Source of the DNA: Marsupella aquatica
Lineage: Eukaryota; Plantae; Marchantiophyta
Assembly (NCBI GenBank): GCA_973895155.1
Contig: OZ316896.1
Location: 11,794,830-11,858,829 of the forward strand
Reading direction: 5' to 3'
Length of the DNA stretch: 64,000 nucleotides
In this document: positions 18,254 to 63,054 of the stretch, piece after piece
Layout of the letters: the number at the start of each line of letters is the position of its first letter
How positions within the stretch are numbered: position 1 is the stretch's first letter
The notes under the pieces: model-generated
Told to the model about the DNA's origin: nothing
The model's input: only the letters and a program-made list of their open reading frames with translations
Database searches by the model: none
Program-made: the position numbers and the translations under genes

Positions 18254-19014
18254 GTAGTGATGAAATTTTTTGCAAGAAAAAACAATGCCCAGAACTTCAC
18301 GTTCAGTGGTGGAATAATTTTGCTCGGCACTATTGAGTTGACGACTGGCAAAGTAAATAGGGTGGTGCTTATCACGCTCATCTTTCTAACTCAACTCAAT
18401 CCCTATGCAAAACTTAGAAGTATCCACAAAAACATGAAACTTTTTTGACCAATTAGGAGGGAGAAGGACTGGAGCTACAGTCAACGTATGTTTGAGGGTG
18501 AGGAAGACATTGTCTTGTGCCTCATTCCACTCATAAGGCACATCCTTTTTAAGAAGTTGATTAAGAGGTGTGGCGAGAACAGGATAACCCTCAATAAATT
18601 GTCTATAATACCCAACATAGCCCCAAAACCCCCTTAACTCACGCAAATTAGTGGGCACTTCTAAGGCAAGGATGACTGTAATTTTATCATGATCAACAAC
18701 AATGCCTCTCTGCAAAATTTTGTGACCCAATAAAATGCCCTCTGTCATCCCGAAGAAACATTTTTCAGGGTGCAAACACAAGCCAGCCTCACGACACTTA
18801 GCAAAGGTCTTCCTTAGTTTCTCCAAATGGTCCTTTTCACCACTGAAAACACAAAAATCATCGATAAAAATCTCCAAGAAATCACGCAGGTAATCCTGAA
18901 AAATAACAGCCATTAGCCTTTGAAAAGTTGTTGGGGCATTACACAACCCAAGGGCATGCGAGAAAATGCATAAGTACCCCAATCAGTTGTGAATGTAGTT
19001 TTAGACTGATCTGA
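18254..19014 (-). pseudogene. Gypsy RT core and RNase H start
   Basis: GLCNAPTTFQRLM, IFIDDFCV, KCFF, LRGF.G..GYYR.FI, FHVFVDTS. Confidence 0.9.
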
Positions 19015-35890: not shown

Positions 35891-37455
35891 TTCTCCCTAA
35901 GCCGTCCGATGACCTTGTCCTTCTTTCTTCTTTCCAAAGCCACCACTTCTTCCAATCGGCGTTTTTCCAACATCTCCCTCTGGAAAAAGGGTCCCTGCTC
36001 CAACTCCTCCCCAAAGATGCTGAGCGCAAGTTCCCCACACATCTCCCTGTACTCCATGGCTCTTTCTTGCGCATAGATGGAGTGAGTAGTAGTCACTGGT
36101 ATCAACCACCGTAGCCTTTGTTCCCAAGCTGCCTTTCGGATTTCTTCTATCGTGGCTGGAGGTGTGCTTTGTGTTTCTACAAGCCGCCGGATGTCCTCTG
36201 GCCATTCTCCCCCAAGTAAATCCTTCTCTTTGGCCAGGGCTGTCTCCTCTTTTTCCCTGAGCCGCTCCTCAAACTCCTGTGCCGTTTGTTTTATCCCGTC
36301 AAATCTCTGGGGAGTGACATTTGATGGGGGAGACTTGGGGCTGTTTTGCTGTTCTGTCCCCTTGAACTACTCTAGGAAGCATGGGGATGAAACGGCCATA
36401 GGTCCTTACTCCTGGGACATGATGGTCCGACCCGTAGCCGGAGTCATCATTGTCGTAGTCCTCCACCGCCTCTCCTCGGCTTGGACTACTGGCTCCCCCC
36501 ACTGCTCTCCTGGTCTTGCTGTGAACACGGCCTCCTGCCAAACATAGCTCACGGGTCCTAGTTCCTCCTTCGGCTTGCAGGCTATCCTCTCCCTCTATTT
36601 ACCTCGACCAGGAGCTTTAGGCTGCTTTACCTCGGCTTCTGGACTCGAGGCTCCTACATACATTCGAACCCCCGACTCGTGTTCCGGCCTCCTTCTTTCC
36701 TTGGCTCCGGTAAAGGGGTTTTCCCTCCTGAGTCAGCTTAGGCCAACTTTTGGGGCAGTGTCCTGTACCGGTGTCGTTGCCATCGCAGCCCTCTTTTCCT
36801 TCTCCAGCAATTTTAGAAGATTCTGCATGCCTGGTTACTGCATCGGCAAGTCTTCCATCCTTGGCCTAAACACTTGCTCGATTGTAGGACTGCCAGGCTG
36901 GTTTGGTTTCTCTGCTGCCGGCCTCTATTCCGGAACTTCCTCTGGTGCCCTTGCCTGCAGGGGAAGTACTGGGGCAAAGATCTGACTCCGGGCATACCGG
37001 CACAACAGCGGCATGTGATAGCCAAGCCGAGACACACTTTCCTTGCCGATCACCTGCTGTTCCTCCTTCAAGATCTTCTTCAGTTGGGTGAGGAGGTACC
37101 CGTTGTAGTCTCGGCTTGGGTCTGGCCTCTCCGCCAGGTAGACTTGTGCCTTGCCAATCTCTGGCCTCGGCAAGTTGCAATGCATGGTTACCTGCAGGAA
37201 ATCAATTATCTCCCCAATGTGCGGGTTGGTGCAGGTGTTCTGGAAGAAGCCATTCTTTGTTGATGGCCCTGGGAACAATCGGAACTCCTTGTCCGGCAAG
37301 GTCTTCTTGGTATCTACTTTGGTCTTATTGCCCATCGGCAAGCCAAACACTTTGGCAATCACCTGGGGAGTGAGATAGAACTCTTTCCCATAGATCCTTG
37401 TGGAATTTGTCTTGGGCTCCCATGGGTATAACCACCGTGCTAGCAAATAGATATT

Positions 37456-37608
37456 CTCATACGAGCCAATTTTGCCTCATACAAGCAAAATTTTGTCTCG
37501 TACGAGTAAACAAGTTCCTCGTATGACCATATCTATTTACTCGTACGAGTTTCTGTTTTCTTGTATGAGTTTCTGTTTTCTTGTATGAGTATTTTTTTCT
37601 TGTATGCA
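37456..37608. repeat. Subterminal array of the 10-bp palindrome CTCGTACGAG, ~20-bp period
   Basis: Copies at 37456, 37476, 37497, 37518, 37540, 37560, 37580, 37599. Confidence 0.8.
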
Positions 37609-37896
37609 TTTTAGTTTCTTCTCTTCACGGTATGTAGCGTCCATATATGCAATAATTGTGTGGACAATATTATGGTGGGTCCCACCATTGTACAACATTA
37701 GAGGAAATTTCTCGATGATTTCACACAAGGACTCCAATATATTGCCACGAAATATGAAGTCAAAACAAAGTCATACAATACTAGCGCCCGACGCTAGTAT
37801 AGTATTATACAAAAAAACAACACTTTAAGAACTCACACTTCTGCCCGTTAGAAAAGACAAACTACAATTGTAGCTGTTCAACGATCAAGCAACAGT

Positions 37897-40800
37897 CTAC
37901 GTTCTCGTACCCAACTGCCTATCAAGTATGTAACGGACTTCTCCCAACGTTAGAATTGGCTGGCTACATAATGTCGATTCGAGCACATCCAGTTTGAACA
38001 TATTCTTGAACACCCAATACACATGTTTGCAAGGCATGTAAGGCTTCCGATAAGTATGTCGACGGTAGAAATCCTCGCAAGAGCAACATGGGAAACAACA
38101 TATCTTAACCCAATAAGAGGCGACTGATCTCTCATGTTCATGGGTCCAGATACAAAATTGTTTCCCCGACGCATTTCCACTCGTGATCACTCTCTCTCCA
38201 ATGACGCTCATCACTTCTTTTTCAAAGGCTTCAATTCTCTTCAAATGAGTTTGGGTTCCCGTTCCTTGAAGCGCACCTCACAGATGGGTCAGTTAGGTTG
38301 ATCCTCTCCGGGAAAAGATTGACATCAATTCGTAACGCAGAAGGCAACGGTGCTTCAATTTCATCTCCACGGCCTTCGGAGAGAATAAGTCCTTGTTCTT
38401 TCAAAAATTGAATCTCTGCTCCAGAAAGATTGGTCCCTCTAGCAATTGGGAGATGTGAAGGAACATTGGGAATGTTCGAGACTCCTCTCCTTGTTGTGCT
38501 TCGGTGACAGTGGTTGTTGGGGCAAAACCATATCTGATCGTTATAAGGTTGCCCCCTGAACATTCTGCATCCTCTCACAGAAATTGCAACAACACCATCT
38601 GGATTCGGAAGACCAACCTTCTTTACTCGATTTTGACATTCATCACGACTAACTCCCCGTCCAAGGGTTCCGTTACACATTGGACCCGCACCCCGTTTTG
38701 AGGTCCGACGCAACTGCCAGGCACCGGGAGGTACTTCACTTTCCATTGGGGAAACTGAATGACAATATGCAGTCTCGACAGGTCTTGCAGGCGTCACTGG
38801 TGGGACAGAGGATCTCGTTGCTCGACGCGTAGGTGTGTCAATGACCACAACTTCCTCAGAAGCATCGCTTTCTGACAAATTATGGACCGCATCAATTCCA
38901 CCGGCTGAAGGCGTAGAAGGCATTTTCTCGAAACCAGTGGAATGCAGGTTTCTCCTTTTCAAACCTTTTGTATTTGGTGAAGTAACAAGGATGGTATCAT
39001 GCCTGTGCGAGTCTTCTGCCGAGACGTTCCCAGTTGCATGTCCTTTTCGTTTCACCGATCGAGTTACAACATCACCATTCAATGGAACGCTTCTTTCCAA
39101 ATCAAACTCATCAGCGTTCGACAGGAGGAGATTGGTGGCTTCCTCAAAGAGACGCGGTGACCCCGCCAGGTCCGCCGATCTTAAGGCAAGCTCAAAAATA
39201 GTTGGGCCAGTTCCTCTGCTCAATCCCCTTTTGTATGCAGTATAAGCAGCAATTTGAGCAACCGCTCTATTTTGGTCCGTTTTACATCCTTCAAATAGAC
39301 CAACCTTTTTTTTTCTGTTGCCATGCTTTCATTCCAGCATGCCTAGATTCCGAACCAGTACTATTAGGAATCATCCCAGCCTCTTCGGCACTCTTGCTCT
39401 GAAACGTTGCACGCAAGGGTTTAGTACATGTAAGAAATTGCACACAAAAGTGGCAACACAATGGACATAACAGTAGCGCCAGACGCTAATAAACTGATGA
39501 TGATATTTCCATGTAAAGAACCGTTTAACACAGAATAAAGGTAGTCCTTACATCACTCATAGTCCAAATGGATTATTAGCGCTCGGCGCTACTATTGCAG
39601 ATAAGGAACCCTTCTATCTCACACATGCTTCACTAGCACCGAGCGCTATTAATGGGAACATGCATCCTAGAGAAGTGTATAACTCACCAGTCTTATGAAG
39701 TTCCCCCATTGTCTCTATCGGACAACCCACCAAGACAGCCACCCTTGCAGCATCCGAAGTTTGCCTGAGTGACAATTGCCAAACCTCCACCAGTCATCGA
39801 TTTCCCTAGAGATTCGATATGCTTTCAAGAAAGTTGGCGCGTTCCGAAGATGATCCCACATCTCCTTGTGCTCTCCGTGCTTTCCATCTTTTACACCTTC
39901 TCGGGAATGACGATGAAAAGATTGGAAAAAATGAAAGGCATCTGATCTTTCTCGCTCTGGGTCGGGTACACCGTCAAAGAACACGTTTCGAATAGCATTC
40001 CAACCAGCCTGAGCATTGTTCACCATGAATCCCCAAATTGTAACATCCTGTAAACCATTTTCATCGGCAACCTCTAACATCAAACGCCAGGCTCTCTCCA
40101 GAGATTTTGCATCTTCGGCCTTTAGCTCACAAGTGAATATGGTGCAAAGTGCCCGGTAATGATGATCATATACATGGGCACTGAAAGTAAGCCAATCTGC
40201 CGTGCTTCGATGCATCACGTCAAAACTTACCCATGAACCCTCTAACGACCCACCAGGTTTCATTCTTTGGAGCAGGTCCAGACCACTACCGTCACCTTTT
40301 ACGGTCATTTTAAAGATATGAGCACTCTCGTTCCGACAGCCTTGACCAGGGAGCAAGAACCTATGAAGAAAAGGCAGTCGGATACACTTTTGCATCCTCA
40401 CAAGAAATTCCAGTTCCCCTTTCCCCTTCTGATCTTGACGGACACTCCTTAACACGGATGCAAACTTCTGAGGAGATGCGACGACCATCAGGGACTCCCA
40501 GATTTCCTTCTCTTCTTCAAGAGAGATTTCTTCAACAGAGGCCTCGCAAAATGTATTCGTCAGTGTCTCAGTCGCAGAGTTTTTAATCCCTGCTGGGGAT
40601 GCCATCGGGTTTGCAGTGAATCCCTTCTCCAGATGAGACTTTGCAACCTTTTCTGCCTCCCTCGAAAAGACCCGTCAACTGGGATGATTGTGAAATCCCA
40701 TATGAACAGCTAGTAGCGACATGTGGGCCAAAGACTTAACGTCAACTTTTGCAGATGGATACATGTAGAACATTAGAGCAGGGCAGGCCTCAACGCACAT

Positions 40801-41688
40801 CGGAGGTTCGGAGCAATGGTGACAAACAACTCCACCTTCAGAGATCAATTCCCCAACTCAGAATGGGCCCGAAAGTTTTGGGGTTCTTGCCCACATCTCA
40901 TTATTTCAAAACTTGTTGTCTTTCCACCACGGACAAGCATTATTTCGACACTGCAGCGATCCCGTACACTGGACTTTCCCGAAATCCCACATTTTCTTCG
41001 GAAAAACATTTGAAGATGTTTTCACAATCCGAGTCCAATAATAACAATCCTTACCACGATCCATATCTTTCAAACGTTCACCTTTTGCGTTCACACAGTC
41101 TACCGGGGGTAACTCAAAAACCACATTCCCATTGTAAGACGTGGGAAGACTAGGCACTACATGATGAACAAAATCACTCCCCCTTATAAACCAAGACAAT
41201 TCACTATGACCTTTGGATTTCAAGATTGTATCCATTGCACTCTGCCGGTACACAGTCAAAGGCACAATCATTTCTCGATCCGCATTAGACTCCTTTTTAA
41301 CCTCGGATGGGTAAACTGGAATCTTCTCTCCGAGAGTAGTTGTCGCTTGCTTATCATCTCCAGAACTTTCCGAGAGTTCGATGACATCGAGTTCAGCCAC
41401 TGTGGGAGGACGAGTATAGGAGGCCCCAGAATCTCTCAAAACAAAAACCTCATATTCTTTCTGAGCCTCCAGAGTCCAATATCTTAGACCATGAACAACA
41501 TCGTAGAAAACTGGAGTCTCCCCCAAACAAACCGACACTAACGAGATCGCTAAAATAGACTCCTTGGCAACATCAAATCTCACTCCCAAATATTCCTCTG
41601 AAACATGCTTTGATTCAGATGATTTGAGGACGAGAATTGTGATTACATCCAGAGTGTCCTTCCTCGTGACAACGATATTTTGAGCCAT
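37897..41688 (-). pseudogene. MULE DDE transposase with GCM-like N-terminal Zn domain and C-terminal SWIM finger (frameshifted; intron ~39687-39400)
   Basis: DCYYW..CTGSLQCRNNACP; WVSFDVMHR, FMVNNAQAGWNAIRNVF, DAFHF (CxxH position), PNSTGSESRH; SWIM CSCEDF..PCKHVYWV. Confidence 0.8.
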
Positions 41689-42401
41689 GGCTTCAAAAGA
41701 GGGATATGCATTTGCCCCACGCGAAATGAAATATGTTTATCATGAGATTCGAGTACCAGAAGTAAATGTTCCATTCTCATTATAGAGTCGTTATAGATTT
41801 GGACGCACTCCATCAATGACGTTTTGTCGTCTTACCAACGGCAGGATTCAGGTTCATAGTTACTAGCGCCTGGCGCTACCTCTATGTGTAAAACACCCTT
41901 GGGTGAGGACTACGAATGCCAATAATAATAGCGCCTGGCGCTACCTATTTCAATGGACTTGAAAACATTCAATGGAAGGATAAGTACAATAACACGATAC
42001 AGTACGAGTCATTAAGTCCGCACGCTTTAAGATCTCCACTAGATCTTCGCGAATCCGATCTGTCCGGGTCCAAATGTGTCAGAGAGGAAGCGTCCACGAA
42101 AGTTATACCAGAGGGTCCTCTTCAAAGTGGGCAGCCAGGACCAAGTGCGAACTCTCCTTATATCTAGTCGTTCTCCTCCGATGTCCTCATTGTCAAGCCA
42201 TTCTTTACTGAGTCACAGTTGTGGCTCATCTTTCGGGCGCGTGGTTCCCGTTCTCGCATTCGGGCCCAGTTGCTCTTTTTGGCTTTCATGCACGTTCTTG
42301 TTCTCCTTCTCGTCCTCGTTTCTCATTCTCGTCCTAGTTCACGCTGTTGTCCTCCTTCACATTCTTGTTCGCGCTTCTTGTTCTCGTCCTAGTTCACTTT
42401 C

Positions 42402-42825
42402 AATGGCACCTCCACGGGGGAAGGCAAAGGAGGAGGCACTTATCCCGAGTGACACCGACCGGGAGACCCCCGCATCAAATAGCTTACCACCTCGGGACGA
42501 GAGGACGACTGTTCCAATCTCAAAGAAGGAGAAACTCATCTCAAAGACGAAGAATGCCCCAACTATGGGACGCAGCGAAGGATCCAATCGGCCAAATGCG
42601 AGCGGCCCGACTTCTGTTCCCGCTAGGGATATTGCCCATGCTTCAGTCGGCCGTCCAAGAGCCGACACTATCTGCACGGGAGTCTCCGTATCTTCTTCAT
42701 CCACTGAGAGTGATCATTCTTCGAGCGGGGACTCATCACTGAGCAGGCGAGGATTTGCGTGGTATGGATCGAGCGACTCGAATGACGACTCTGATGCGTA
42801 CAAGCCAAGTTGGTGGGAAGACTGA
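42402..42825 (+). CDS. Possible small Ser/Pro-rich ORF between the two MULE genes
   Basis: ATG-started part (MAPPRGKAKEE...) of the 249-aa ORF; low complexity, no recognised domain. Confidence 0.25.
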
Positions 42826-43973
42826 TTTCCCGGTGTCAGAGCGTCTCGTTCGAGTGCTGGAGAGACTTGGAGGATCCATCGAGGTTGATAGGATCTAATT
42901 CCACTCGTTTTTTTCCGTTACAAAACCCATACCGTTCCTTCCTCGTATGCCGGATTTCTAGTGTATTGTAACATTTTGTATATGAACGGCACAGCCGTTT
43001 ATTTTTACCCCGGTGTCAATGCTTTTGAATTCAGAAGACCAAGCTTTAATTTTGGGTTCTACTCCGGTGTTTGCATTGTATTTCTGAATGCGAAACTGAT
43101 CTATTTCTTTGAAATGGCCGTAAACACTCGTTTGCTGTCAATGTTTTTACTAGCGTTCGGCGCTATTATGACAAACAAAGTGTCCGTAACACTGTCGTGA
43201 CATGTCTTATCTCTGAAGTGTTTTTGATAGCGTTGGGCGCTATTAATGAAAGGAATCACAAGTCAGACCCGTTCGGAGTTATTTTTACTTTTATTTCAAC
43301 AAAGTCTATTCAATTGATGTGCATTTTAATAGCGCCAGGCGCTATTGTAATTCATTGGAATATTCGTTGAATGAATGGGTTCATGTGGTCATGTTTGTTG
43401 TCATTGGACTCCGATTTCATCATTTATTTGGATACTAGCGCCGAGCGCTACTAAAGTTGGCTTGTCGACTCCTGCACAAAATTGGAAAATTTATACACAC
43501 TTGTGTTGATAGTACTGTTCGAAGCTACATTAAGACGGTTTTTCAGATACATTTGAAAGTATGTTGTATAATAGCGCCTGGCGCTATCCACAACTACCGA
43601 CATTGATGTGGTTCCAACGGTCACTTTCCAACGGTAATATTATAGTAGATTGAGGTTCACTGAACCCTTTTTGCTTTTGTCTGGGATGAAAGTCCAATCG
43701 GAGAATGCCATCTGTACTTGGGACCGTTGTAATCGAATGGCTGGTTCCAATGTATCGGTGTCTTAATACGAGGTGGAGATCGCTCGTTTGGGATAATTTA
43801 GTCCGTCTACGCGCTCAGACCTCGGACTGTACGAGTTTGTCAAGTGCGTATGTGCGTCCTTTATTGGTCCTGTACATTTTGAGACGTGATCGTGACAAGA
43901 ATTGCACGGCGCGTCTGGCAGTGCCTTTGGTCGAGTCGCTCTCCACGGCAACTTTTGGCTGGGTGATACGAGA

Positions 43974-46900
43974 ATGGGGGAGGCTGATGGTGGTCATTCT
44001 GAGTCCTCTCAGTCTTCGTTCGCTGGTTCAGTATACACCCATCGCGTCACTCGATCGACTGCGTCCCTGTCGACTTCCGAAGCTGAATCTGCACAGCCCT
44101 TCCTGAGGTCGAGGAGAGGGAGAATGGACCCTAAGGACGTCTCCATGGATGAAGTCAGTGACATAGGCTTATCGATAGACGAGGTAATATCAAAGCACGC
44201 ATTGTCGTTCGGGAAGGATTTTTGAGGATTCGATAAGGAGCCACCTCGAATTCCTCTTTGTAGATTGCTCCTCATGGAGGTTGTTCGAACCTTACAGAAA
44301 GAAAGTGCATCGATCGAGAAGTTGAAAGAATCATTCCGTGTCACCGGGTACAACTCGCGCATTGGGATGCCTTTCTACGTTCAGCCTGCGAATGCCGATG
44401 GGGTTTCTCAGATATGCACCGGCAAGATCCAGGACTCTTGGGATCCAATCTGGGTCGCAGAGAACGACAAGTTTGAGGAAGAGTGTGATGTGGACCCAGC
44501 ATTCCATATTCTAAAAGATAAAATGTTTTGTGTGTTTGACGGAAATCATCGATTGTACTCCTGGTCAATCGTCACCAGGGAGAATCTGGACAACTTGAAG
44601 TATCATCCTCGTGTGATTTGCGTCATTTTCAGTGGTGACAGAGGTTCGCTAGTTGAGCTCGAGGCGGCAATGCACACCGTGAACCAGTAAGTTCTATTCG
44701 TTAACTGTTGTTACCCTTGTCATTCATTTTGGACCAAACATGCTTCGCGAAAGTGTTCGTTCCCCAATTTTTGCTAGCGCCCGGCGCTACTAATTCCTTT
44801 TCATTGCATCCAGGCTTGGACAAGCAGTCGTCGAGCCTTCCTGGATTCTTGACGCGGACAGAATTTCCCGAATTGTGTCGCGTGATCTTGATCACTATAA
44901 GCCACTCATCGACAGCGCGAACATGGCAAAGTTTGAGGTGATCCGAAATAAGACAAGAAATGGGTCTTGGTTTACACATAAAATGCCACAGGATGCTCTC
45001 ATCTACATTGTGTGTGGACAAAATCAAGTCTTACTCAAATCAATTTAAGTCTGATATGGCTTTAGCCAAAGCTCAATGGGCTTCTTGGTCAGAAGAGGAG
45101 ACCACAAAGAGGCATGAGGCAATGATGAAGGAGGCGACCAAAGATTGGTCGATCAAAGTGACGAAGATCACCCCTTTACTTCATCCAGATTTTGGAGATT
45201 ATTTGGGAACTTGTGCTGAGATGTATCCCGTAACTGAGAAGAACAAACGGGAGAAGAAGCCAGACACAGTTGTATGCACAATGGATCGAGCCAGGTTGTT
45301 TACTGTTGTTTCATACCTGGATCCAAAATTGAGGTGCACCCTTCTAGTAGCCCACTGCACTCCCGAGATTCGGAAACAGTTTTTCCATCCTGCAAGTGTC
45401 AACGACAAGCCTGTGAAGCAGTGGTGCCATACATGGCATACTTGGAATTCTGTGGAGGGAATTGCAACTGGAATGCTTCACACTTCTTTCAAACAGATTT
45501 CTGACCGAATGCCGGCTGACCGTCTCACAAAGTCTGGGTGTGAGTCAATGGAGGCCATGCTTAAGATCATTCTCGATGAATTTAGAAACTTTGGGGATCT
45601 TGTCAAGGCAAAATTCTTCAACAACTTATGGCCTTCCAAATATGCGGACAAGGAAGATTACACAGAGCGGAACCGGAAGAGAGCCAAACGATATCTATAC
45701 CGGTTTTACATGTGGATGGAGCTTAGATCTCCTGACACTCTGTGGGCATACCCGGCTGCATTTCAGAAATGGGTGTCTATTGAAGAGGGAGACGCTCTTG
45801 CCGACCTTTATTCGATGTACCTCGACACTGTCCGTGGTACCTCGACACAGACAAATGGGATTTACCGTTCGACGAAGCTGAGAAGGATGCCTTCATGAAG
45901 TTGCAGAAGTCCCAGATCCCTGCCAACTATGTGTCTGCAATGAAGCAAGGTCTCCAGTCTGATGTTGACGAATCTGCATCTGAGTTACAGAAGAATTGTG
46001 AGTCTCTTGTCATGCACGTTGACCGAAGCCGTAAGCCAAGAGCAAAGGTGAAGAATGAGTCGGCTGCACCAAGTGACTCCACAAGGTCCTTCAAGAAAAG
46101 TGAGTAGTCTAAGCGCTTTTTGGTTACTTGTTGGCGCTGCTTATGGAGGAGTTTCATTTGGAAATTCCTTTGATTAATAGCGCCTGGTGCTAGTCTGAAA
46201 GGTTGGACTCATTCAAGTTTCTGTGCCTAACAGGAGGTCGAAAGTCCGACACGGAGGTCCCGGCTGCCAAAGGGAAGAATGATGCAACTCCTCAGGCATC
46301 GGAGGCAAACACTGGAGCTCAAGAAACCCCGGATCAAGGGACCCCGGATGGTGCTGGCAAATCCATTGTCCCTCTTGACGCAACTAGCACAAAGAAAAAG
46401 AAAAAGAGAGGCGCCGGTGAGGACAGAGCAACATCATCTACTCGAGACGTTATTTCCTGTGGACTCTAGAGAGATGTCGGGAATTTTAAGCGAAGGTGTT
46501 CTAGACACTGTTTTGTGGAGTCCAATTTAAACAAATTTTACGATTCGGTATTTAACAAGGGGATAAGCCCATGTGGGTTACTAAAGTTGAGGCCTGGGGA
46601 AAGGAATTGGTAAAGTCAGGAGACAGAGAGAAGGGAGTAATGCGTGGCGGAAAAGAGAGGGGCTTTGGTGTGGATGCTGGTTTCATCTACATTCCCACTG
46701 GATTAAAACCAACACTTCTTGATCAGAAGGTTCCCAAGTGGAACCTTCAGGATTACACTATTCCCAGCTCTTTCTTCCGAGCCATGGAGCCGTTCCTTGC
46801 AGACGATGGCCTACTTGCAATTTTACATAGAGGAGACTATGATCAGGTATCTGAAGTGATTGCGGCTTGCCAGGATTCTAAGTGTTTCCAGTGTATTTCA

Positions 46901-47684
46901 ACCCACCATGTGGTCATGACTACACCAATGTATAGGCCCCGATCTGATACTCAGGTAACAATTCCTCTTGCACATACTAGCGCCCGACGCTACTATCAAC
47001 ATTCGTAATATCTACAATTCACTTATCTTTCGTAAGGATGAATGGTTGACTAGCGCCAAGCGCTAATATATGTCTATTTTCTTATACTGCCTTCATTGGG
47101 AAACTGTGTTGCAGATATTCACACTTACTCTTAATATATTTTGCCGCATTTCGACAAAGGGAAGGGTCCCGAAAGACCCCAAGTTCCGGCCACTATCGAA
47201 TGATGAAGACCCTTCCGTCACTAACATTATTGGGTTTTCGTTGCCGCGAGATGACCCGACTCCTGAGCTCCAATTTGCAGGAAATTCATGATTGCCTGTG
47301 GGTTTCATGCAAACTATTTTGGAATTGGTGACTCTTCCTGGAGATATCGTTATGGACTGGACAGTAGGTTCCGGTAGTACGTTTGTGGCTGGAGATTATT
47401 CTGGTCGCTTTGTTGTTGGGCTGGAAAATCGGCCAGAGTTTGTTGATACTTCCGGTAAGGTCTTCCTCGATCTTTTACAGAACAAAGAAGTGGTTGCACC
47501 AACTCCTCCTAAGAAGATTCCTGGAAGTAAGAAGCAGGACAGGCTCCGTGCTATTCTAAATTTTGATTCGGAAGACGAGGATGAGGGTGGAAATGCTTCT
47601 CAGCAATCTAAAGATGATGAGGTGTTGAAGAATGTGGTGGACCTTGGATCTGGAGATGAGGACAGTGAAGAGTCAAAAGAGTAA
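43974..47684 (+). pseudogene. Spliced MULE cargo gene: ParB/Srx-like domain plus beta-class N4C/N6A DNA-methyltransferase-like domain; exons ~43974-44686, 44814-46099, 46234-46954, 47115-47684
   Basis: ParB-like: RIPLCRL..VR..IEKLKESF..GY..FYV..FCVFDGNHRLYSW. MTase-like: VDAGFIYIPTG (motif IV position), FLADDGLLAI (LkpgG-like), LPVGFMQTILELVTLPGDIVMDWTVGSGSTFVAGDYSGRFVVGLE (motifs X/I/II). Canonical GT..AG introns; in-frame TGA at 44223 and 47289 plus frameshifts. Confidence 0.75.
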
Positions 47685-49248
47685 TTTTCTTTAGCTTTCT
47701 TTCTCTCATTGTATACTTTTTTCCAAAAAACTCCTCTACTCCCTTTTGTCTAGAAAATTCGCCCGATTTCCCGACTTCGACTAAAGAACTCCAGTTCAAA
47801 TTCTCAGGTCAGAGTGGAATCTTTGGAGGCGTTTTCAACTTTGAAGGAACGTCTCTAGGAACGTTGTACACACCCCGGAGAAGCCATTTGTTCTCCCCTC
47901 TTATGCTGAAAAGGCGGCACGACGGGCAGATTCAGTCAGGATGCTTACTTGGGAGAGTAAGGGTCTTAGACTCAGGAGAGGCTCAGATAGAAAGTTTGTG
48001 CAGAATCACTTCGTAGATGATATTGCAAAATCCAAGTATGTGGACGACGAAGCAGAGTCCACTGATAGATCAGAAAGTAGCAGTTCTGAATCGGGCTCAG
48101 AGTCGAGTGGTGGTTGTGGATCTGGTCTTTAGTTTTCCTTGTTTTATTTACCCGTTTATGGAGAACGACGACACTCAATAAGAACGCTGTGACGTGTCGG
48201 ATTGGAGTAGCGCCCGACGCTATTACTGTAGCCGGTAGTTCAAAGAGGTTTTTATTTGGTTGTTTTCCTTATAGCGCCCGACGCTAGTATAAATGTACTC
48301 AATGGCCGCTTCACGTCCAATATATGTGACAATATTTTCATACCCTTTGGTGTGTTTTTTGGGTGCACATTTGCTGGTATGATTTTTGCTGTTTGTTGTT
48401 TGTTGTTTACTGTTTGCTATTTGTTGTTTGCTGTCACGGAGAGATCCCCCGGCTCCCATGATCCCACGAATTCTAACAAGTCAGAATCCGGCACCTTCGG
48501 CTTTAGCCAATGTAATTTTACGAAGGCTTCCAAGCCGGATCCGGCCATGAAGCCCTGGTACTTCTGACTCTGCATAGCCATAAAGCATGCATCCTCCTCT
48601 TGTGCAAAGTGTAATTGCACTTCCTCAGGGAAGGTCGCCGCCCAGCCCTTCCAAGTATCATCCCTTGTTGGAAAGGCATTGATGGGGTCGACCTCCTCTT
48701 CTTTGGCTTCTCCCTGTCTCCTGCTTCCTTGCTCGGCTGGCTTCCTTGGTGCCGCTGTCCTGGGAATAGTGAGTTGTCAAGAACACGTCGGGTGTCTGGC
48801 TGCATGTGCTAATTATGCTACTTATCACTTGTAAGAGACCTCATGCTTAGAACCAATTCCCTTGAGAGCACTAGTAGAAACCGGGGCAATTTAGACCATA
48901 CCTTATAGGACTAAGCCCACTAAGTCCTTATTCCATACTTTAAACGACTCGCATCCATTGCCAAGGTTTTGGTAAAGACTATAAAAGACTTTGAATGTGC
49001 ACCCGGTTTAGTTAAAGACTATGAAAAGTATACTTGCTATTTTGTGAAGGGTGAACACTCTATACATCATAGATTTTATTCTTGGAATCCACAATAAAGG
49101 TCCACACAAAGACTAGGACACTTGATAGTCTTACAAGGGTTCATCATAAGAGTGTACTTCAAAAGGACCGGTCGACGTGCTACATTTTGGCCGCAGTGCT
49201 TAAGGAACATGCCTTGTATATATCACCAAGCAGAGGCCAAGGGCCACC

Positions 49249-49590
49249 ATGAAGCGTGATCCTGATGGGTTCTTGTTGGCCAATTTTAGGTCCAGAGTAC
49301 CAGAATGGTCTGAGCCTTTTGTTTTCCCTAGCCAAGTTGAACAGGCTTTCTTTCTAGATGTGGAGGGGTCACATGACTGGAGGGTGGTATGCCATAGCCA
49401 AGCACGGAATAGGCGGATGGATGGAAGTAAAGTAGAGTTCAGTTTGGACGACCATGCTGCATTCAAGCATCCTAGTCAGGAGACCGTAGTTCCAGCTTGG
49501 GCAGGGACCGACTACATCCCGTTAACATTGAGAGAGACATATGATGAACCTGGGGAGATGGAATATGATGAGGTTGATGATGTGCAATAG
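49249..49590 (+). pseudogene. CACTA TnpD C-terminal remnant (DUF4216-like)
   Basis: DPDGFLLANF..EPFVFPSQVEQAFFLD..DWRVV. Confidence 0.75.
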
Positions 49591-49767
49591 GCAACAGCTG
49601 GCAATTGGCAAGTATGAGGTTGAGGATGACTACCTGCACAGAGTCACAAAATGAGAATTGCTGCCTGGAATGATGTTTAGGATAGTTGGATATGCATGAA
49701 ATTGATTGATACTTTGAATCTAGTGTGTTGATTCTCCCTATTTGGTTGTGGGTGCTGTGCAGAAGCT

Positions 49768-52194
49768 ATGGGGGAAGAGGGTGATGACATGGAGATAGAC
49801 ATGGGGCTTGGAGAGTGGGGTGAAGAGGAAAGATTGGATATGGATGGAGATCCAGATGCAGGGCCCTCACAGAAAAATGCATCTGTGTAGGATGCACAGG
49901 GCCCTCATCAAGTGCCAGGTAGGTGGGCAGCTAGAGAGAAATCACATAATCCATACCCTAGAAGGAGCCAGAGTTATTGGCAAGGGACGCCTGATGATTA
50001 TGATGATGACTATGATGGAGCAGAAGATGGATGGGATGAATATGAACACCTAGAGCGTGGTAGAGACGGGTATAGAGGGCAATGGAACGGTGAGGAGGAT
50101 GATTGGACAAGTAAGTGCCTTGTGCTAGTGATTTTGTGATGGTAGTAGAGATTTAGCTCAATATGGACTTATCTGATGTCTAGCTAGGGCAAAGAGTTTA
50201 TCTTACAGGTCCATCAGTGTGGCATGTACCTGTTGGTATGCAGACTCTGATTGGGACAATCACGAAAACAACAAAGGCCATCCACGTTCAGATAGGAGGC
50301 AATCATTCATAGGCGGGAGAAACGACCCTAATTCATCAAGACAAAGCAATTGGACAGGTGGTCCAGAACCATCTATGCGCCAAGGGAGAGGTAACTTGGT
50401 CATTGTAGAATTGCTCTGAAGTCCAGTGTATATTTGGCAGCAAAATTTATGCTTCATACTTACCTAATGGATCCCGTAAATGTGCAGGGACTCCAGGGAG
50501 GTTTGGACAATGCAATCCACGCCGTGGGGGGAGATCAGGCCGTGGAGGGACCCCAGGCCATGGGGGGACATCAGGCCGTGGAGGGACACCTAGTAGCGCT
50601 TCAGGGAGTACCAAGGCAGGAGACAGTAACAAATTTGGTAAAGTAGAAGTGAATTCCGAAGGTTGGATAACTCCCACATGTGATGGTAAGAACCGTTGGC
50701 ATTCTGACCTAAGAGGAGAAGTATTGTGTTGGTTAGATTTGAGCATTACAGAGTTTAGGAGTCAGAACAAAGCTGATTGGGCTGCTATCTGCAAGGACAT
50801 TCTTGAACGGTGGGACTATGTTGGTAATGATGGTAAGGGCCTAGTTGAAGATTGCATATCAGATTATGCAATGAGGATTTTGAAACAAGAGAGGCATAGG
50901 TTGAAAAGGATGTGGATAGACAATGGTTCTAACAGGAGAATGCCACCACCCCCATCATTGGAACTGGATCAATGGACACGGTTAATCAAAGGGTTCATGT
51001 CGGAGGCTGGACAGAGCAAGAGTGAACTGATGTCAAATGCTCGAGGCAAAGTGAAACACCTTTCACAGGCTGGGAGAGGAAGTTATGCTCCAGTGAAAGA
51101 ACAATTGGTAAGGCAGTGACATGCCTGATAGTAAGCCTCAAACTTATCATCTTGCTACCATTATTACATTTTCATTGACAATCAACACTTGGTTTCATTC
51201 ATATGTATGTTGATGTGGACTGCAGAAGAAATTGACAGGTGAAGAACCATCAGCACAAGAAGTGAGAGAGGAGTTCATGAAACAAAGGAGTGAGGTGACA
51301 AGTGTGACTTCCAAACAGGTGATTATGTTGTAATTCTATATGTTCTGTGACTATTTGGCCTTGAGCATCAGAAAGAAATGTAGTAGGAAGTAAGCAACCA
51401 GTTCTTGGGGACAGTTATCTGAGATATGTAAGCTGTGTTATGATAGGGAACTGTTACAACTCTCATAGAGATGTGTGAACGGTTGAAGTCATTAGAGTGT
51501 GGACTCCCTCGAGTGGAAAGTAAATTGGCTGATCGTTTGGATATTGTGGAGGCATCTGTAGCAAACCTTCTTGCATCAGTGGAATCTAATTTCAAGCTTG
51601 TGATTGAAAAATTGGGTGGTTCCCAACCAAACAATGAGGGCAACATTGTACAAAGTGTGCCCTTGTTAACAAAACAGGGAATTGGCAAATCTGACACAGG
51701 TATGGAAATGACACCGGCCCATTGTTCATTGTGTCCTATGTTCAAATGTTAGAAGTAAGTTTTCATGAATTGAGTGAATGGTTTGAATGTAGGAAGAGTG
51801 GAGGCAGAGAAGGACCCTGTAATCAGTAAGCAGAAGGGAAAGAAGGTTGCTGAGACAGGTAACCTGCTATGATCCAGTACATTACATTTGAAAAGTGCAT
51901 GGAGTTTTGTGAAGCTTAAGCCGGTTGGAGATAATCTTTTCTGTAAGAACTGGTTGGATGAACTGGTTGGACTCGCAGGTATGTGTGGGTACAGGCATTT
52001 TGCGACCGGATCATGCTAAATTCCATGGCAAAGTGGTCCCGGATGACCATGTAGTAGTGTTGTTGACTACAGTGATTGTATCTGATTGTAATTTGCCATT
52101 TCCGAATAGAGACGATGATCCACCTCAGGAAATAATTGCAGATGCAGTAGGATCTCTTGTGCTCTGGCCATCAGAGTGTGTTAGTCTGCAGTGA
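49768..52194 (+). pseudogene. Multi-exon CACTA TnpA-like second gene
   Basis: Acidic N-terminal exons; RHRLKR..PPP..QWTRLI..SE.MSNAR..GRGSY (Ptta/En/Spm-like); last exon FHGKVVPDDHVVV..LPFPN..AVGSLVLWP; GT..AG introns. Confidence 0.65.
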
Positions 52195-53884
52195 CTGAAT
52201 GCAAGTGTAGATAGAATCATGTAAATTGTGTCACATTTTGACATTGCCTTGGAAAGATCCAAGAAATATCTGTACCAATTTTTCCATTTGGTAAAGAGGA
52301 TGAAGGAGCCGTTGTGTGTGACATTGATATTTCTGAATTCTGTGTGTATGAAACAAGTGATTGATATCAAACTATGATACTTGAATCTGTTTTGTATCAT
52401 TTCAGTATCAGTGTGTATGGTATAGAGGAATACTTTGTGACCTTCTTTGTAGTCTATAAAGTTTGAATCTGTGAATTCATATTAGTGTACATGGTATAGA
52501 AGATGGCTTTCTGAAACTCTATGTGTTCTAATGTTAACATGATGAATGGTGAGCTTATAGAGTGAGTTCATTCCAAGTACACAATAAAACATGAATGAAA
52601 TATGTTATTTGTGCACAAGAGTGGGTTCATTCCAAGTAGTATAGTGGGGTCTTCATCACTCATATCCAGTTGACATGAAAGACTTATACATACCCCACAA
52701 AGTATATTTAAAGACTACCCTCCATAACCTTTTTAGTCGTTCCCAACGACTCACCATCGTAGCCCATAAAAGACTGAAAACGACTCACCAAAGCTACCCA
52801 CACAAAGACTAAAATAGACTGAAAATCCAGTCTATTAAACGACTTATAAACCACTTCTATAAAGGACTCAGTTGATTATAGTAACAAAATATATGACTCG
52901 CAGTCCTATAAATGACTGGAGTCCTTCCCAGTCGTTTCCAAGTCCTATACGGTACTGAATAGTCGTTTAATGGGGTCTAAATACCCCCCGGTTTCTACTA
53001 GTGGAGCCTTGTCCCCTCCCGGCCATTTCTCAAGTTCCTTGGGTTCCCCTGTGTCTCTTGCGGTTTTCTCCAGATAAGTTGGGTGGGAAGGGCGTACCCT
53101 TTTCCGCAAGGACTCCTAAGCACTTTTGGTACCAAGAGACATGTGTGATCTACTCCAGATATTGACAATAACACCAGAGTAGTCAGGGCCAAGCCCACAC
53201 TCCACAAATCTCTCCTCCAAGTGATAATCTTCTCTACGTGCCTCTATCAACTCTCGGCTATGATCTCTCTTCTATTACACTATTATGAACACACTCACAT
53301 CCCCATCTGTGCATCTATATAGTATTAATGGATCCGACAACGCGATAATCGCAGTGTATCCTTCTTCCCCAAACTTCTATGTCAAAACCTGCCTAATATC
53401 TACCTTCCTCTTTACTATCAACTTAATGCTCACCATAGAACGTAAATTCAAAATCTGAGGACTCTCATTCAAATCGATATTGACATTCATACTTCCTATA
53501 TGCTTTCTAACTAAGAGAGGTTCAGCGACAGAGCCATCCCTACTTGATCACAGGTTCGTGAACATTATATCTATGGTATTGGCGGTATAGCCGACCTTGC
53601 TAGATTCAAAGTTCCATCTTCAAGGTACTCGAGTGGTGGCAATGCCTTCCATGACCAAGAATCAAGAAACTTAGAATCCTTCCACCATAGAAACCGGCAA
53701 CATAGCCATTCCGTTTAGTCCTATAACCGATGCTCAAGCATTCTTCCAATGCAAATGCACTCTATGCACTCTCTATTCTCACGCTCATACGCTGGAAATG
53801 CTGGAAAAATGGACTCCCCTAGGAGGGGGAGCCTCCCTCTTATTTATAGTTGAAGCCAGGCCACGCTGGTCCCTTTACAAGAGT

Positions 53885-57879: not shown

Positions 57880-58875
57880 GCTACTCGTGAGTTACCCACC
57901 ACGACAGTGGTGGCCCTCCTACCACGTGCCTGTCCAAACTCGTTTCTCAGCCTTGAAACAAGTCGAACCTTGCACTAACACAGAATGTTGGGGCAAGTTC
58001 TCTTCGACTATACTCCTTGTCGTTAGCAACCCCTCCCATACGAAGCCGCATTTGCCCTTGTCAGCACAACCGTCGCTCAACGGTCTTTGCTATCTGCAGA
58101 AGCAACCAACCAACCGGTAAGAACCCGTCTTGATCTCAGAACTTCCAAGACCATTGTCTTGCATCAAGCTCAACAGTCGTTAGTAAGTAGGTCAGCGGAT
58201 AGAGCCTCCCAGGCCCGCATGGCCTTGCCATAAGCTGAAACTAAGGTCGGCATCACTGTTCGTCCGGAATAGTCTATCAACCGGATGTCGCCCAAGCTTC
58301 CCCACTTTCTACCCATCAATGGTTGACCGCCCTGCCTCCAGGACATGCCCATGGCCCAAACTTAGTTTGTCACAAACTAGTAGTAACACGCCGGGACCAT
58401 TCGATTTCTAGATCTTAGCCACCTCTCGGCGAAACCGGGTCTCGCTCAACCTCTCACCATGCATCGGGACCAGATCTCAACGGCAGCCCCCAGAGTCTAC
58501 TTGGTTCTACCTCTCCAACCTCAGGTCCCCGTGGGAACCAAATGCGATTTGGTCACTATTCGACTTCGGATCGATAAGAGGGACTACCCCCATTGCAAGC
58601 CTCAAAACCAAAACCATCCAATTCACAATCAGAGAGCACCATGAGGTATCTTTCTTCATTAGCTTTCCAACGAGCCCAAGAACTCCCCCAATGGAGATCC
58701 GGTCGTCGAGTTATGCTTGTTTCCGCTTCAAAACTCAAAACGACGTATCTTCGTCGATCGCAATCAGCTCGAGCTCAAACTTGAGAGGACCACTACCCTC
58801 ATATATGCTTCTGGGGACCTGCCACCCCCGGACCAGCTTTGGTCCCCTATCTTTGGCTCCCTACCCGAGGGTCCG
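57880..58875 (-). mobile_element. Degenerate LINE ORF2 3' fragment
   Basis: Minus-strand pieces resembling the post-RT region (KYLGV-like, VAW..GGLG-like, Cys/His zf-RVT-like). Heavily decayed. Confidence 0.45.
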
Positions 58876-61800
58876 TGTTGTGCGTCCCATGGCTCTCCAA
58901 ACCCAAGAAACCCCCCTGCACAAGCCGATTCCCATAGGTTTCGTCCTCGGCGAGGCCGTTTCCGTGGCTTAGCGGCATCGGACGCTGCTAATTTCCTTCT
59001 ACTACTACCACCATTAACATTTTACACACATATACTAGACAGATCCTTCATTGGGTCATGAGATACGTAGCCGGCCTAAACCAGGGCTTACCTTGTCTTC
59101 CCTTCGTCTTCTTTAGGTATATTTGGATTCCGTCGTCGGAATGATCCTCAATTGGCTTGGTTAAGCTGTTAAGACCTCTCTCAGCTTGACACATCCAATT
59201 CTCACTCCCTTACTTACTTCCCTTCTATATTAGTCGATGTGGGCACTCTTCACACAAGTTTATGCGACACACAAATAGCAAAATCACTCTTTCTGACTGA
59301 GTTATACCATGCACTTGCCATACAAACAGTACGTCTCATACACAAGCTTTGCGAACTAAGTCGTGAGGCCAACTCTATTCAGCTCTTAGGCATGAGGAAA
59401 CATGAATATACACAAGGGTCACTGTATAAGTAACCGAGAGCTTCTCTTACTACTTGATCCCAGCCCTGCTGGTGCAACTAAAAACTTGCTAAAGAAGAGG
59501 CCCTGAACTCCCTATAGCCTAGGTACTTATCCTGGCTGTGGATCCGCCCAATTCCTTGCAGCATAAGCCTAATCTACCTAACTATAATCTACCTAACTGT
59601 AATCTACCTAATTGTAATCTACCTATGTACAGAGAGGCAGGAGCACAAGTGTCGCCCTTACCCGTGGATCTGCAATCCCACCAATCTAAGTGTCAGGGCC
59701 GCCTCCTGGTCCTGATCCTAAGTCTAAACTTGGAGATCAGCGCCCGCCCTGCCCACTCACGCCTCCTACCTCCACGTCCGCCCTTCCTAAAAGGAACGGC
59801 GCCCTTGCACCGTCACGACACCGGTGGTGGATCCTCAATGGACGCCCCCAAAGCTTCCCCCGCAGCCACTACCGTTGGTCCGTCCTCTGACAGATTACCT
59901 GCCCCGGACCGAGTCAACTCTTCATCGCCCTGACCGGGTCCACCCTCGGCTTCAACCTCAGTATCGGTCACGGCTTCTGATATGGCTACAGCCTCCCCGG
60001 CCTGTTCTAGTGGAGGATCCGGTACCTCGACTTCATTACTGGTTGTCCCGGCCTCGGCCTTGCCATCCCCACTTCCTAGGACCGGTGGATCCACCGCCGT
60101 ATCGATGCCGGAGTTTGGTGCCGGGTTTACCTTCTCGGTCACAACGGCTTGAGGAGTCGTATAATTCCCAAACCCAGAAGGTTTCCGCTTCTTCTTCTTC
60201 CCTGTTTTGGCAGTTGGTTCCTTCCCCTTGCCTTCTACCTCCAGCACCGGGGTGAGTGTCTCGGCTTGTCTTTTGGCCGGTACCACTCCTGGCAACTTGC
60301 TTCCCACAATTGGAGTTGGACCAGATGAAGCTAAGCACTTAAATACTGTAGCTTGTTTCTTCAGCCGCTCCGTTTGGTTGCTTGCCCGCCGTTGTAAGTT
60401 CTCCATCTTCCTTGTGATTTCCTCCAACTCCTCTTGGGTTTTGTCCAGGTCCTTCCGTACCTCCTCTCGCTCCTTCTGGGCCTCATGCAACTCCTTCTGG
60501 GCTTCTTGCAATTCTTTCTCTAAGGTAGCCCTCTTCCTTGTCAAGCTCCTTCACAACTTCAGACTCCATCTTATCAATCTTGGCGTAAGTCTGATCGAGC
60601 TGGTCGTCTTTCTCCTGCAGGTTGGCCTTGAAGCTGGCCGTCAGAGATGCAAGCTCCTGCTGTAGCGCAATGATCCCTTGATAGGCCTTCCTTAACTCGG
60701 CCTCCTTCTGCTCAAGGGCTCCGCGGATATCCTTGAGTTCCCCCTTTAATGCCCTCTCCCTTCTCTGGGCTCCGCCATGGCCCGATTGTTGGCTGCTAAG
60801 TGGGCCTCCTCTGCGTCCCTTAGCTCCCGCTTCCACTTCTCCCTTTCCTTGACTGCGCCGGCCAACTCTCCTTGGGTCCGAGTCAGTTTATCTTTGATAA
60901 TTTGATTGTCAGACTGAGCGGCATCCAATTGCCCTTGCATGATGTTTAGCTCATGCTGCTTAATCCGCAGCTCATCTTGGGCTTTCTTGGCCGCCTTCAG
61001 GTCTTCCACCTTGGCTTATTTTACCCTAAGCCGTCGGATGACCTCGTCCTTCTTGCTTCTCTCCACAGCCACCGCTTCTTCTAATCGGTGCTTCTCCAAC
61101 ATCTCCCTCTGGAAAAAGGGTCCCTGTTCCAACTCCTCCCCAAAGATACTGAGCGCAAGTTCCCCACACATCTCTTTGTACTCCATGGCTCTATCCTTAG
61201 CATAGGTGGAGTAAGTAGAAGCCATCGGCATCAACCACCGCGGCCTCTGCTCCCAAGCCGCCTTGCGGATCTCTTCAATCGTGGCTAGAGGGTTGGTTCT
61301 TTTTTCGGCAAGTCGCCTGATGTCCTCCGGCCAATCTCCTCCTGGTAAATCTTTTTCCCTAGCCAGGGCTGCCTCCTCTTCCTCCCTAAGTCGCTCCTGA
61401 AACTCTTGTGCCATCTGCTTTATGCTGTCAAAGCTCGGGGGAGAGACATCTGGTGGGGGAGACTTGGGGCTATTCTGCTGGGTGGGGTCCCCTCGAACTA
61501 CTCTTGGAAGCGTGGGGATAAACCGGCCACAGGTCCTTACTTCTGGAACATGATGATCCGACCCATAGCCGGCGTTATCATTGCTGTAGTCCTCCAACGC
61601 CTCCTCTATTGCTTGGACTCCTGACTTTCCCCTCTGTTCCCCTGGTCTTGCCGTGAAAACGGCCTCACAGATCACGGGCCCTGGTTCCTCCTCTAGCTTC
61701 CAGGCTATCTTCTCCCTCTGCTTTCCGCGGGTAGGAGCCTTAGGCTGCTCTGCCTCCGATTCGGGGCTGGAGGCTCCCACATATATTCGAACTCCAGGCT

Positions 61801-63054
61801 CGTGTTCTGGCCTCCTTCTCTCCTTGGCTCCGGTAAAGGGGTTTTCCCTCTTGAGTCGGCTTAGGCCGACCACTGTGGCAGTGTCCTGTACCGGTGCCAT
61901 TGTCGTTGCCGGTGCCGTCCTCTTCTCCTTCTCCAGCAATTTCAGCAGATTCTGCATTCCTGATTGCTGCATCGGCAAGTCTTCTTTCCTTGGCCAAAAC
62001 ACCTGCTCGATCGTAGGACTGGCGGGCTGGTTGGCTCTTTTGTTGCCGGCCTCTATTTTGCAACTTCCTCTGGTGCCCTTACCTGTAGGGGAAGTATTGG
62101 GGCAAAGATCTAACTTCGAGCATACCGACACAATAGTGGCATGTGATAGCAAAGCCGGGATACGCTTCCCATGCCGATCACCTGCTGCTCCTCCTTCAAG
62201 ATCTTCTTTAGTTGGTTGAGGAGGTACCTGTTGTAGTCCCGGCTTGGGTCTGGCCTCTCTGCCAGGTAGACTTGTGCCTTGCCGATCTCTGCCCTTGGCA
62301 AGTTGCAATGCATGGTCACCCGCAAGAAATCGATCATTTCTCCGATGTGCGGGTTGGTGCAGGTGTTCCGAAAGAAGCCATTCTTCGTCGATGGCCCTGG
62401 GAATGATTGGAACTCCTTGTCAGGCAAGGTCTTCCTGGTATCTACTTTGGTCTTATTGCCCATCGGCAAGCCAAACGCTTCGGCAATCACCTGGGGAGTG
62501 AGATAGTAATCCTTCCCATACACCCTCGTGGAATTGATCTCGGGCTCCCATGACCCCATGAATTCTAATAAGTCTAAATCCGGCACCTCCGGCTTCAGCC
62601 ATGGTAATTTCACGAAGGCTTCCAAGCCGGATCCAGCCATGAAGCCCTGGTACTTCTTGGTCTGCATGGCCGTAAAGCATGCATCCTCCTCTCGTGCAAA
62701 ATGTAGTTGCACTTCCTCTGATAGGGTTGCCGCCCAGCCTTTCCAGGTGTCATCCTTTGTTGGAATGGCATTGATGGGATCGACCTCCTCCTCTTTGGCT
62801 TCTCCTTGCCTCCTGCTCTGCTGGCTTCCTTGGTGCCGCCGACCTTGTTCTTTTTGCCGGGGTGGCCTCTTCGTTGTTGTTTCCTTTCCACTTCATCGCG
62901 GTTGCCATGGATGTTTCTCCTAGCACGGTTGCCTTTGTCCACCCCTCCGTGCTACCCTTCAACTCCCAGTGTACGTCGTTGCATCAGTTGATGGCTTCCC
63001 GAATGCTGACGATTCTGTTTTCACAAAACAGAAGGTCGTCGAGCTGATTGGCAA
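58876..63054 (-). mobile_element. 4.6-kb TG...CA element, copy 3 (right end lost or interrupted)
   Basis: TGTTGTGCGTCCCATGG start; colinear with copy 1 up to ..GCTGATTGGCAA at ~63054; frameshifted ORF pieces 59813-62962. Confidence 0.9.

Follow-up and report, generated by a model that had tools for sequence, protein, structure and literature searches.

A palindrome array in the non-coding DNA of a liverwort Mutator-like element and a candidate transposon self-recognition system

A 64,000-base stretch of the genome of the liverwort Marsupella aquatica (contig OZ316896.1, positions 11,794,830 to 11,858,829 of the forward strand; hereafter the window) contains a Mutator-like element that carries 17 copies of a 15-bp palindrome, a transposase gene and, divergent from it, a cargo gene whose predicted product would combine several bacterial-type parts. 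We give roughly even chances to the reading that these components form a self-recognition or anti-silencing system resembling that of VANC, the accessory protein of VANDAL transposons, assembled from bacterial-type parts and probably working without methyl transfer, with the palindromes as candidate sites for a dimer of the cargo protein.

The pattern TAGCRYYNRRYGCTA matches 17 times between positions 37782 and 48286 and nowhere in the rest of the 64,000 bases, against a mean of 0.01 and a maximum of 1 in 100 dinucleotide shuffles of the window, and we reject a chance origin. An unbiased scan for spaced palindromes also ranked the 15-bp palindrome first with 17 copies, where the best in 30 shuffles reached 2–4. 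The palindrome sequence itself can be read in an open frame, yet none of the 17 copies overlaps an inferred exon (coding share 0.62; chance of about 8e-8), and the outermost 357 bases of the element on the left and 164 on the right are free of them. The element, its two main genes and the palindromes are arranged as follows.

37425..48450, unstranded: Mutator-like element of 11,026 bp with GG...CC ends and short degenerate inverted ends (CCGTG..AGCAAA), splitting a host repeat exactly
37897..41691, minus strand: transposase gene, 2 exons, intron at about 39399-39687, motifs recognised by eye
43974..47684, plus strand: cargo gene, 4 exons (about 43974-44686, 44814-46099, 46234-46954 and 47115-47684)
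37782..37796, unstranded: palindrome 1, beyond the 3' end of the transposase gene
39474..39648, unstranded: palindromes 2-4 (39474, 39577, 39634), transposase intron
41864..41943, unstranded: palindromes 5-6 (41864, 41929), upstream of the transposase gene
43151..43586, unstranded: palindromes 7-11 (43151, 43228, 43330, 43436, 43572), upstream of the cargo gene
44775..44789, unstranded: palindrome 12, cargo intron 1
46178..46192, unstranded: palindrome 13, cargo intron 2, aligned with the LAPGAS intron run-on of the relative P0044
46978..47065, unstranded: palindromes 14-15 (46978, 47051), cargo intron 3
48208..48286, unstranded: palindromes 16-17 (48208, 48272), near the right end

An earlier note on this DNA had described 17 palindromes confined to the element's non-coding DNA, with one past the transposase 3' end, three in its intron, seven between the divergent genes, one, one and two in the three cargo introns and two near the right end; both the confinement and each of these counts were recovered. 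Its description of invariant TAGC/GCTA arms around a core that varies only by C>T and G>A also held. The copies take the form TAGCRYY-N-RRYGCTA, with 0/136 outer positions changed as against 15/102 inner ones (Fisher p 1.6e-6, for an outer/inner split picked after the data were seen), and all 15 deviations are such transitions at half-site positions 5–7. The variable part is the CCNGG core. Beyond the 15 bp, the site can be extended to WTA-N-TAGCGCC-N-GGCGCTA-N-TAW, with TA at positions -2/-1 on at least one side in 17/17 sites and on both sides in 5/17.

Relative to the consensus TAGCGCCNGGCGCTA, the window holds 5, 14, 17, 18 and 24 copies, cumulatively, at 0, 1, 2, 3 and 4 mismatches. No 3-mismatch copy lies inside the element, so the set is sharply bounded and is not the tip of a decaying series. 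The outer arms alone (TAGC-N7-GCTA) match 19 times in the window, 17 times within the element and twice outside it; inside the element we found neither TAGC/GCTA arms with spacers of 3–6 or 8–11 bases nor lone TAGCGC half-sites. The flanks of the palindromes are unrelated (mean identity 17.7/60, best pair 30/60), for which reason an origin by tandem duplication was rejected. Invariant arms, a spacer of constant length, flanks that bear no relation to one another and deviations indifferent to strand together point to a double-stranded dimer site and not to a hairpin, and the geometry has the pattern expected where a protein binds as a dimer.

The cargo protein, of about 1,200 residues, appears to consist of a ParB/Srx-like domain with the motif DGNHR, a helical domain and a beta-class amino-methyltransferase fold. 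The last of these is the best supported. The final cargo exon matched N6_N4_Mtase in Pfam (PF01555, 5.8e-8) and beta-class methyltransferases (MTases) in the PDB, and its motifs run in the permuted order of that class, with catalytic motif IV first and the S-adenosylmethionine (AdoMet)-binding motif I last. For the MTase domain of a relative from the liverwort Riccia, phmmer found no match in the PDB; in a structure model of it (predicted local distance difference test, pLDDT, 40), the top 11 structure matches were all bacterial-type amino-MTases (Z 6.2–8.8), and the model places D-L-P-T-G at motif IV. We assign to the C-terminal part of the cargo protein an amino-methyltransferase fold, in keeping with the MTase-like protein of the earlier note, with a degenerate catalytic motif. 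The AdoMet-binding motif is intact (DWTVGSG in the window, DFAGGWG in Riccia). Motif IV reads YIPTG or YLPTG in the window's family and DLPTG, DMPSG or DLPTH (D-x-P-[ST]-[GH]) in five Riccia proteins, and the aromatic residue of DPPY/SPPY is kept in 0/7 of the sequences that cover the motif. In the MTase N4CMT, a change from SPPY to APPA abolishes activity (PMC8885841).

A ParB/Srx-type identity for the N-terminal domain is suggestive, not proven, and the earlier note's claim of a ParB-like protein gains modest support from it. The DGNH[RQ] signature is present in five homologues, and DGQHR/DGQQR is described as a signature within the ParB/Srx fold (PMC4619093). Against PHROG, the N-terminal part weakly matched a ParB-like family (E 0.016). 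In the Atlas, the ParB-like exon (44226-44687) matched one cluster with ParB_N in 11% of members (score 0.95) and another with DUF3723 in 31%; the DUF3723 clusters to which it links the exon are fungal. DUF3723 proteins are common cargo of Starship elements; we found no paper linking DUF3723 with ParB. The helical middle domain (about residues 330–740 of the protein P0029) was modelled with pLDDT mostly >90 and had no clear structural match (best Z 5.2), and Foldseek and VIA searches with a 901-residue model likewise returned no clear match.

Relatives of the cargo middle region number 54 at the 50% cluster level. Among the 28 that we looked up, nine had an organism assigned, six being from Riccia sorocarpa and three from Calypogeia fissa, and by these sequences the cargo relatives are multi-copy in both liverworts. 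Riccia has near-identical cargo copies at several loci, including a full-length protein of 1,207 residues in which all three parts recur. In a 24-row tree, rooted at the midpoint and with P0037 labelled Riccia by similarity only, the window's cargo groups with Calypogeia proteins (100/99), separate from the Riccia clade. The relative P0044, 47% identical to the cargo over 72 residues, has a gene call that runs into the intron after exon 2 and there reads LAPGAS, in alignment with the window site at 46178, where the same frame reads IAPGAS; LAPGAS is what the palindrome encodes when translated, and about 0.015 such occurrences would be expected by chance among 19,521 residues. In P0050 the corresponding position has LASALA, perhaps as a variant and perhaps by coincidence. 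The palindrome may thus be common to diverged families, unlike the fast-changing VANC motifs. The earlier note had suggested that sister families with diverged cargo proteins might have different palindromes, and P0044, a single diverged relative, weakly contradicts this.

In viral and in metagenome contigs, scans with protein patterns found no relative. Paired-motif scans returned 8 viral, at least 116 metagenome (flanks examined for 80) and 7 GTDB loci, and in 0 of the 131 listed was a protein related to the cargo or to the transposase encoded. Among the matches listed, 70/131 loci (within L009-L124) hold bacterial inverted repeats of one class, paired, of the GCGGTAGCGCCGGATGCTA type and about 60–90 bp in length, with no relation to this element. 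Since only 18/330 of their sites have the TA-N extension, we rejected them as look-alikes. A homologue search restricted to proteins of 2,114–5,000 residues found none, which says little.

The element that houses this array, Mutator-like as previously claimed, has a 10-bp target site duplication, within the 8–11-bp range of Mutator elements (PMC6446971), and exactly interrupts at 37424/48451 a host repeat of which the window holds three copies. Its remaining features are these.

37415..37424, plus strand: left target site duplication GGCTCCCATG, 10 bp
48451..48460, plus strand: right target site duplication GGCTCCCATG
37456..37589, unstranded: left subterminal array in which a 10-bp palindrome (CTCGTACGAG type) recurs seven times with a period of about 20 bp
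48370..48433, minus strand: subterminal repeats of the heptamer YARYAAA at the right end, with a counterpart, TAGCAAA, at 37441
42412..42825, plus strand: Ser-rich open reading frame, some 138 codons long, in the interval separating the divergent genes, without palindromes and with no family match

The CTCGTACGAG-type palindromes occur at the left end only, and 5/7 have decayed, chiefly through C>T/G>A, which sets them apart from the 15-bp sites. The subterminal heptamer repeats are likely transposase sites. The transposase, whose intron we placed from GT/AG sites alone, has a Cys/His-rich N-terminal region, a D-(D>N)-DxxH-E pattern and a C-terminal SWIM-like finger, all recognised by eye (FDVMH, FMVN, DAFH, SESRH, CxC..CKH); it matched nothing in Pfam, NCBIfam or the PDB. 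Mutator transposases are of the DDE kind, with a C/DxxH motif and often a SWIM finger. The boundaries of the cargo exons are consistent with tblastn alignments of homologues. The transposase has four premature stops and frameshifts, and the cargo three stops and several frameshifts; in all, the copy has seven premature stops across 12 segments, plus frameshifts relative to other copies. This copy of the element is dead. Contigs from four of six sequencing runs, representing three organisms, cover 29–30 of 30 bins at mixed identities (depth here is not copy number), which indicates that the family is multi-copy. The Ser-rich frame at 42412..42825 is possibly a third gene. Past the cargo stop, an acidic, Ser-rich open frame (47845-48129, plus strand) contains FVDDIA, like the C-terminus of the Riccia protein P0025, and is possibly an extra exon or small gene. 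No open frame or family that would represent a ParA partner was found among the element's frames.

The window as a whole is a nest of transposons. The three host-repeat copies (13618-18254, 33612-55032, split, and 58863-63054) are 78–87% identical, have long coiled-coil-like open frames with no clear Pfam family, and are very deep in the sequencing-run contigs. Two elements with CACTAGTAGAAA inverted ends lie at 3349-6125 and 48869-53003, the latter also inside the split host repeat, and 6364-33110 holds long terminal repeat retrotransposon and long interspersed nuclear element fragments (RVT_1, RVT_2, rve, zf-RVT).

The site layout resembles that of VANDAL elements, as the earlier note had anticipated. 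VANC21 binds motifs in the introns and the intergenic and terminal non-coding DNA of its VANDAL (PMC5735166), and 17/17 sites here are non-coding; both systems comprise a Mutator-type element with short ends, an accessory gene and many short non-coding motifs. The VANDAL motifs described in PMC5735166 have nine bases, are non-palindromic as written, were multiplied as tandem repeats and differ between close families, whereas the palindrome here spans 15–21 bp, stands in unrelated flanks and may be common to diverged families. The cargo protein, for its part, matches amino-MTase and, weakly, ParB-like families, a distinction from VANC drawn without a direct alignment to it. A second set of parallels is bacterial: VirB acts as a ParB-like anti-silencer from palindromic virS sites (PMC10770331) and BisD as a ParB-like activator of a mobile element from palindromic bisS sites (PMC12409273); in these systems a ParB-type domain and palindromic sites share a mobile element, as they would here if the weak ParB assignment holds. 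ParB/parS clamps read a palindrome of about 16 bp through a helix-turn-helix, and their loading and sliding depend on CTP; of these features the element shows the palindrome. As described there, VirB and BisD are bacterial proteins with a helix-turn-helix and a GxxR CTP pocket. The cargo, by contrast, is a eukaryotic gene with introns and a fused MTase fold, and its DGNHR is more akin to the signature DGQHR/DGQQR, which marks one branch within the ParB/Srx fold (PMC4619093). By this comparison the system would work like VANC without being VANC, and it resembles ParB/parS with some hallmarks of that system missing and others at most suggestive.

Bacterial-type beta-class amino-MTases in eukaryotes have precedents in MpDN4MT1, from a liverwort, and the bdelloid N4CMT (bioRxiv 2021.02.12.428880, PMC8885841). 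According to these reports both are host genes with an intact SPPY, and N4CMT helps to silence transposons; the cargo differs in being transposon-borne, in its size and in its degenerate motif IV. DIRS1 retrotransposons carry a likely inactive MTase domain, and some MTases of algae come from ParB-terminase loci of phages or carry a fused helix-turn-helix of the ParB type (PMC4738411). The eukaryotic MTases treated in the text of that paper belong to other lineages, MTase groups and carriers than the cargo, and no Mutator carrier, liverwort family or cognate palindrome was seen in that text. In the openly accessible full-text literature we found no paper describing a Mutator-borne ParB-MTase gene or the palindrome; the supplement of PMC4738411 could list such proteins.

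We envisage that a dimer of the cargo protein would bind the palindromes and so mark the element as self, shielding it from silencing by host DNA methylation as VANC does for VANDAL. The DGNHR domain could serve as a ParB/Srx-type nucleotide switch that may dimerise the cargo and let it spread from the sites. Since the MTase fold is without the aromatic residue of the catalytic motif and, in this element, without the acidic one too, we propose that its role is to bind DNA or flip bases rather than to write a mark. T and 5-methylcytosine (5mC) share the same 5-methyl group, and tolerance of C>T at inner positions only might therefore let the cargo read sites that are already methylated. The outcome would be less 5mC and expression of the two divergent genes. 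Of the possible binders we favour the cargo, since repeats suited to the transposase are present separately at the ends and since palindromes are where ParB-like proteins load when they counter silencing or activate a mobile element. With the Mutator-like element, the VANC-like layout, the amino-methyltransferase fold and a ParB/Srx-type signature of the cargo supported, what falls from the interpretation in the earlier note is CCNGG as the target of an active N4-cytosine methylase, given a core intact in only 6/17 sites and a catalytic motif of YIPTG/YLPTG.

Several observations weigh against a role of the cargo as binder of the palindromes. Its ParB-like part has no match in Pfam or the PDB and was modelled with low confidence, structure searches found no helix-turn-helix in the cargo, and in other families the link between cargo and palindrome consists of one peptide run-on, that of P0044. 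Traces of methylation, sought after the fact, are weak and mixed. With the sites excluded, the ratio of observed to expected CpG is 0.79 in the element and 1.04–1.15 between the genes, compared with 0.32–0.68 in five neighbouring repeats, a point in favour of shielding, but the high value between the divergent genes may reflect a promoter effect or young age, and the ratio shows no gradient with distance from the sites. CpG cytosines in the sites changed in 2/68 cases, against five TGA to 31 intact CGA codons (5/36; p 0.047), a difference that disappears (p = 0.40) when only the 2/5 stops shown to be CGA-type in relatives are counted; compared with intact CGA codons, the stops are at greater distances from the sites (p 0.018, n=5). 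The terminal TAGCAAA heptamer also shares TAGC with the palindrome half-site, and a Mutator transposase, that of AtMu1, can by itself hypomethylate and activate its own copies (bioRxiv 10.64898/2026.08.24.746577). These last two points favour a different binder, namely the transposase, which might engage the palindromes through its Cys/His-rich N-terminal region for activation or synapsis while the cargo does something else. We hold this to be unlikely: the same report places AtMu1 transposase peaks at terminal repeats, whereas the sites here are internal; terminal arrays of another kind are present in the element; and the inner bases of the half-site are GCC, as against AAA in the heptamer. 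A host dimeric factor, such as a germline activator or chromatin opener, could instead be recruited by the sites, with the cargo unrelated. The geometry and non-coding placement would suit any dimeric binder, and conservation in a diverged family suits the cargo no better than it does a host protein that evolves slowly, but the other 53 kb of the window, with several other transposons, has 0 matches, and the element bears the cost of a large cargo gene whose folds are of DNA-acting kinds, which makes a host factor quite improbable in our estimate.

Among readings that keep the cargo as the acting protein, an active amino-methyltransferase would write N4-methylcytosine (4mC) or N6-methyladenine in or near the sites, and this self-mark would block 5mC or override it. 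The beta-class fold with its intact AdoMet-binding motif, the Asp retained at motif IV in Riccia copies and the horizontally acquired 4mC writers of Marchantia and bdelloid rotifers (bioRxiv 2021.02.12.428880, PMC8885841) would fit; given the missing aromatic residue, the loss of N4CMT activity on Ser/Tyr-to-Ala change and the variable CCNGG core, we grant this idea little credence. We think it rather unlikely that the cargo is a bacterial ParB-methyltransferase module captured by liverwort Mutator elements and operating a parS-like system in the plant nucleus, in which a ParB-type, nucleotide-gated clamp loads at the palindromes, spreads, and either writes a non-canonical amino-methyl mark or displaces the 5mC machinery. 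That the palindromes have no protein-binding role, whether as hairpins of RNA or single-stranded DNA or as what is left of tandem duplications or small insertions, is highly improbable. Three of the four introns do fold better than shuffles (z -2.0 to -2.5), but in two of them the folding is that of neighbouring copies pairing with each other. Deviations give G-T wobbles on one strand and mismatches on the other (plus strand 8 sites, minus strand 4) with no compensating changes, 10/17 sites lie outside introns, no Rfam family matched, and the flanks are unrelated; a hairpin function was rejected. A sigma-70 scan gave chance-level results and is not relevant here.

The VANC-like reading, with the cargo at the palindromes, would bear on how plant transposons escape silencing. 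Sequence-specific anti-silencing by plant transposons is documented in few cases, chiefly VANDAL/VANC, and support for anti-silencing is described as confined to a few cases (PMC12973397). The palindrome array is a real feature and, judged from sequence, may represent a new form of transposon self-recognition. If so, a second, unrelated protein would have come to the same site layout, pointing to convergence on a site-seeding strategy, here built from bacterial-type ParB/Srx and amino-methyltransferase parts. Were the clamp reading true, no earlier case would exist of a ParB-type sliding clamp at work on eukaryotic chromatin, nor of a self-marking system of such a build carried by a transposon. 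The site is long, exact and known, which makes binding, nucleotide dependence and effects on 5mC directly testable in Marchantia or Riccia, and the cargo could yield an epigenome-targeting protein with a long recognition site. More generally, these elements add an unannotated, transposon-borne reservoir of amino-methyltransferase folds in liverworts, a lineage in which 4mC was found.

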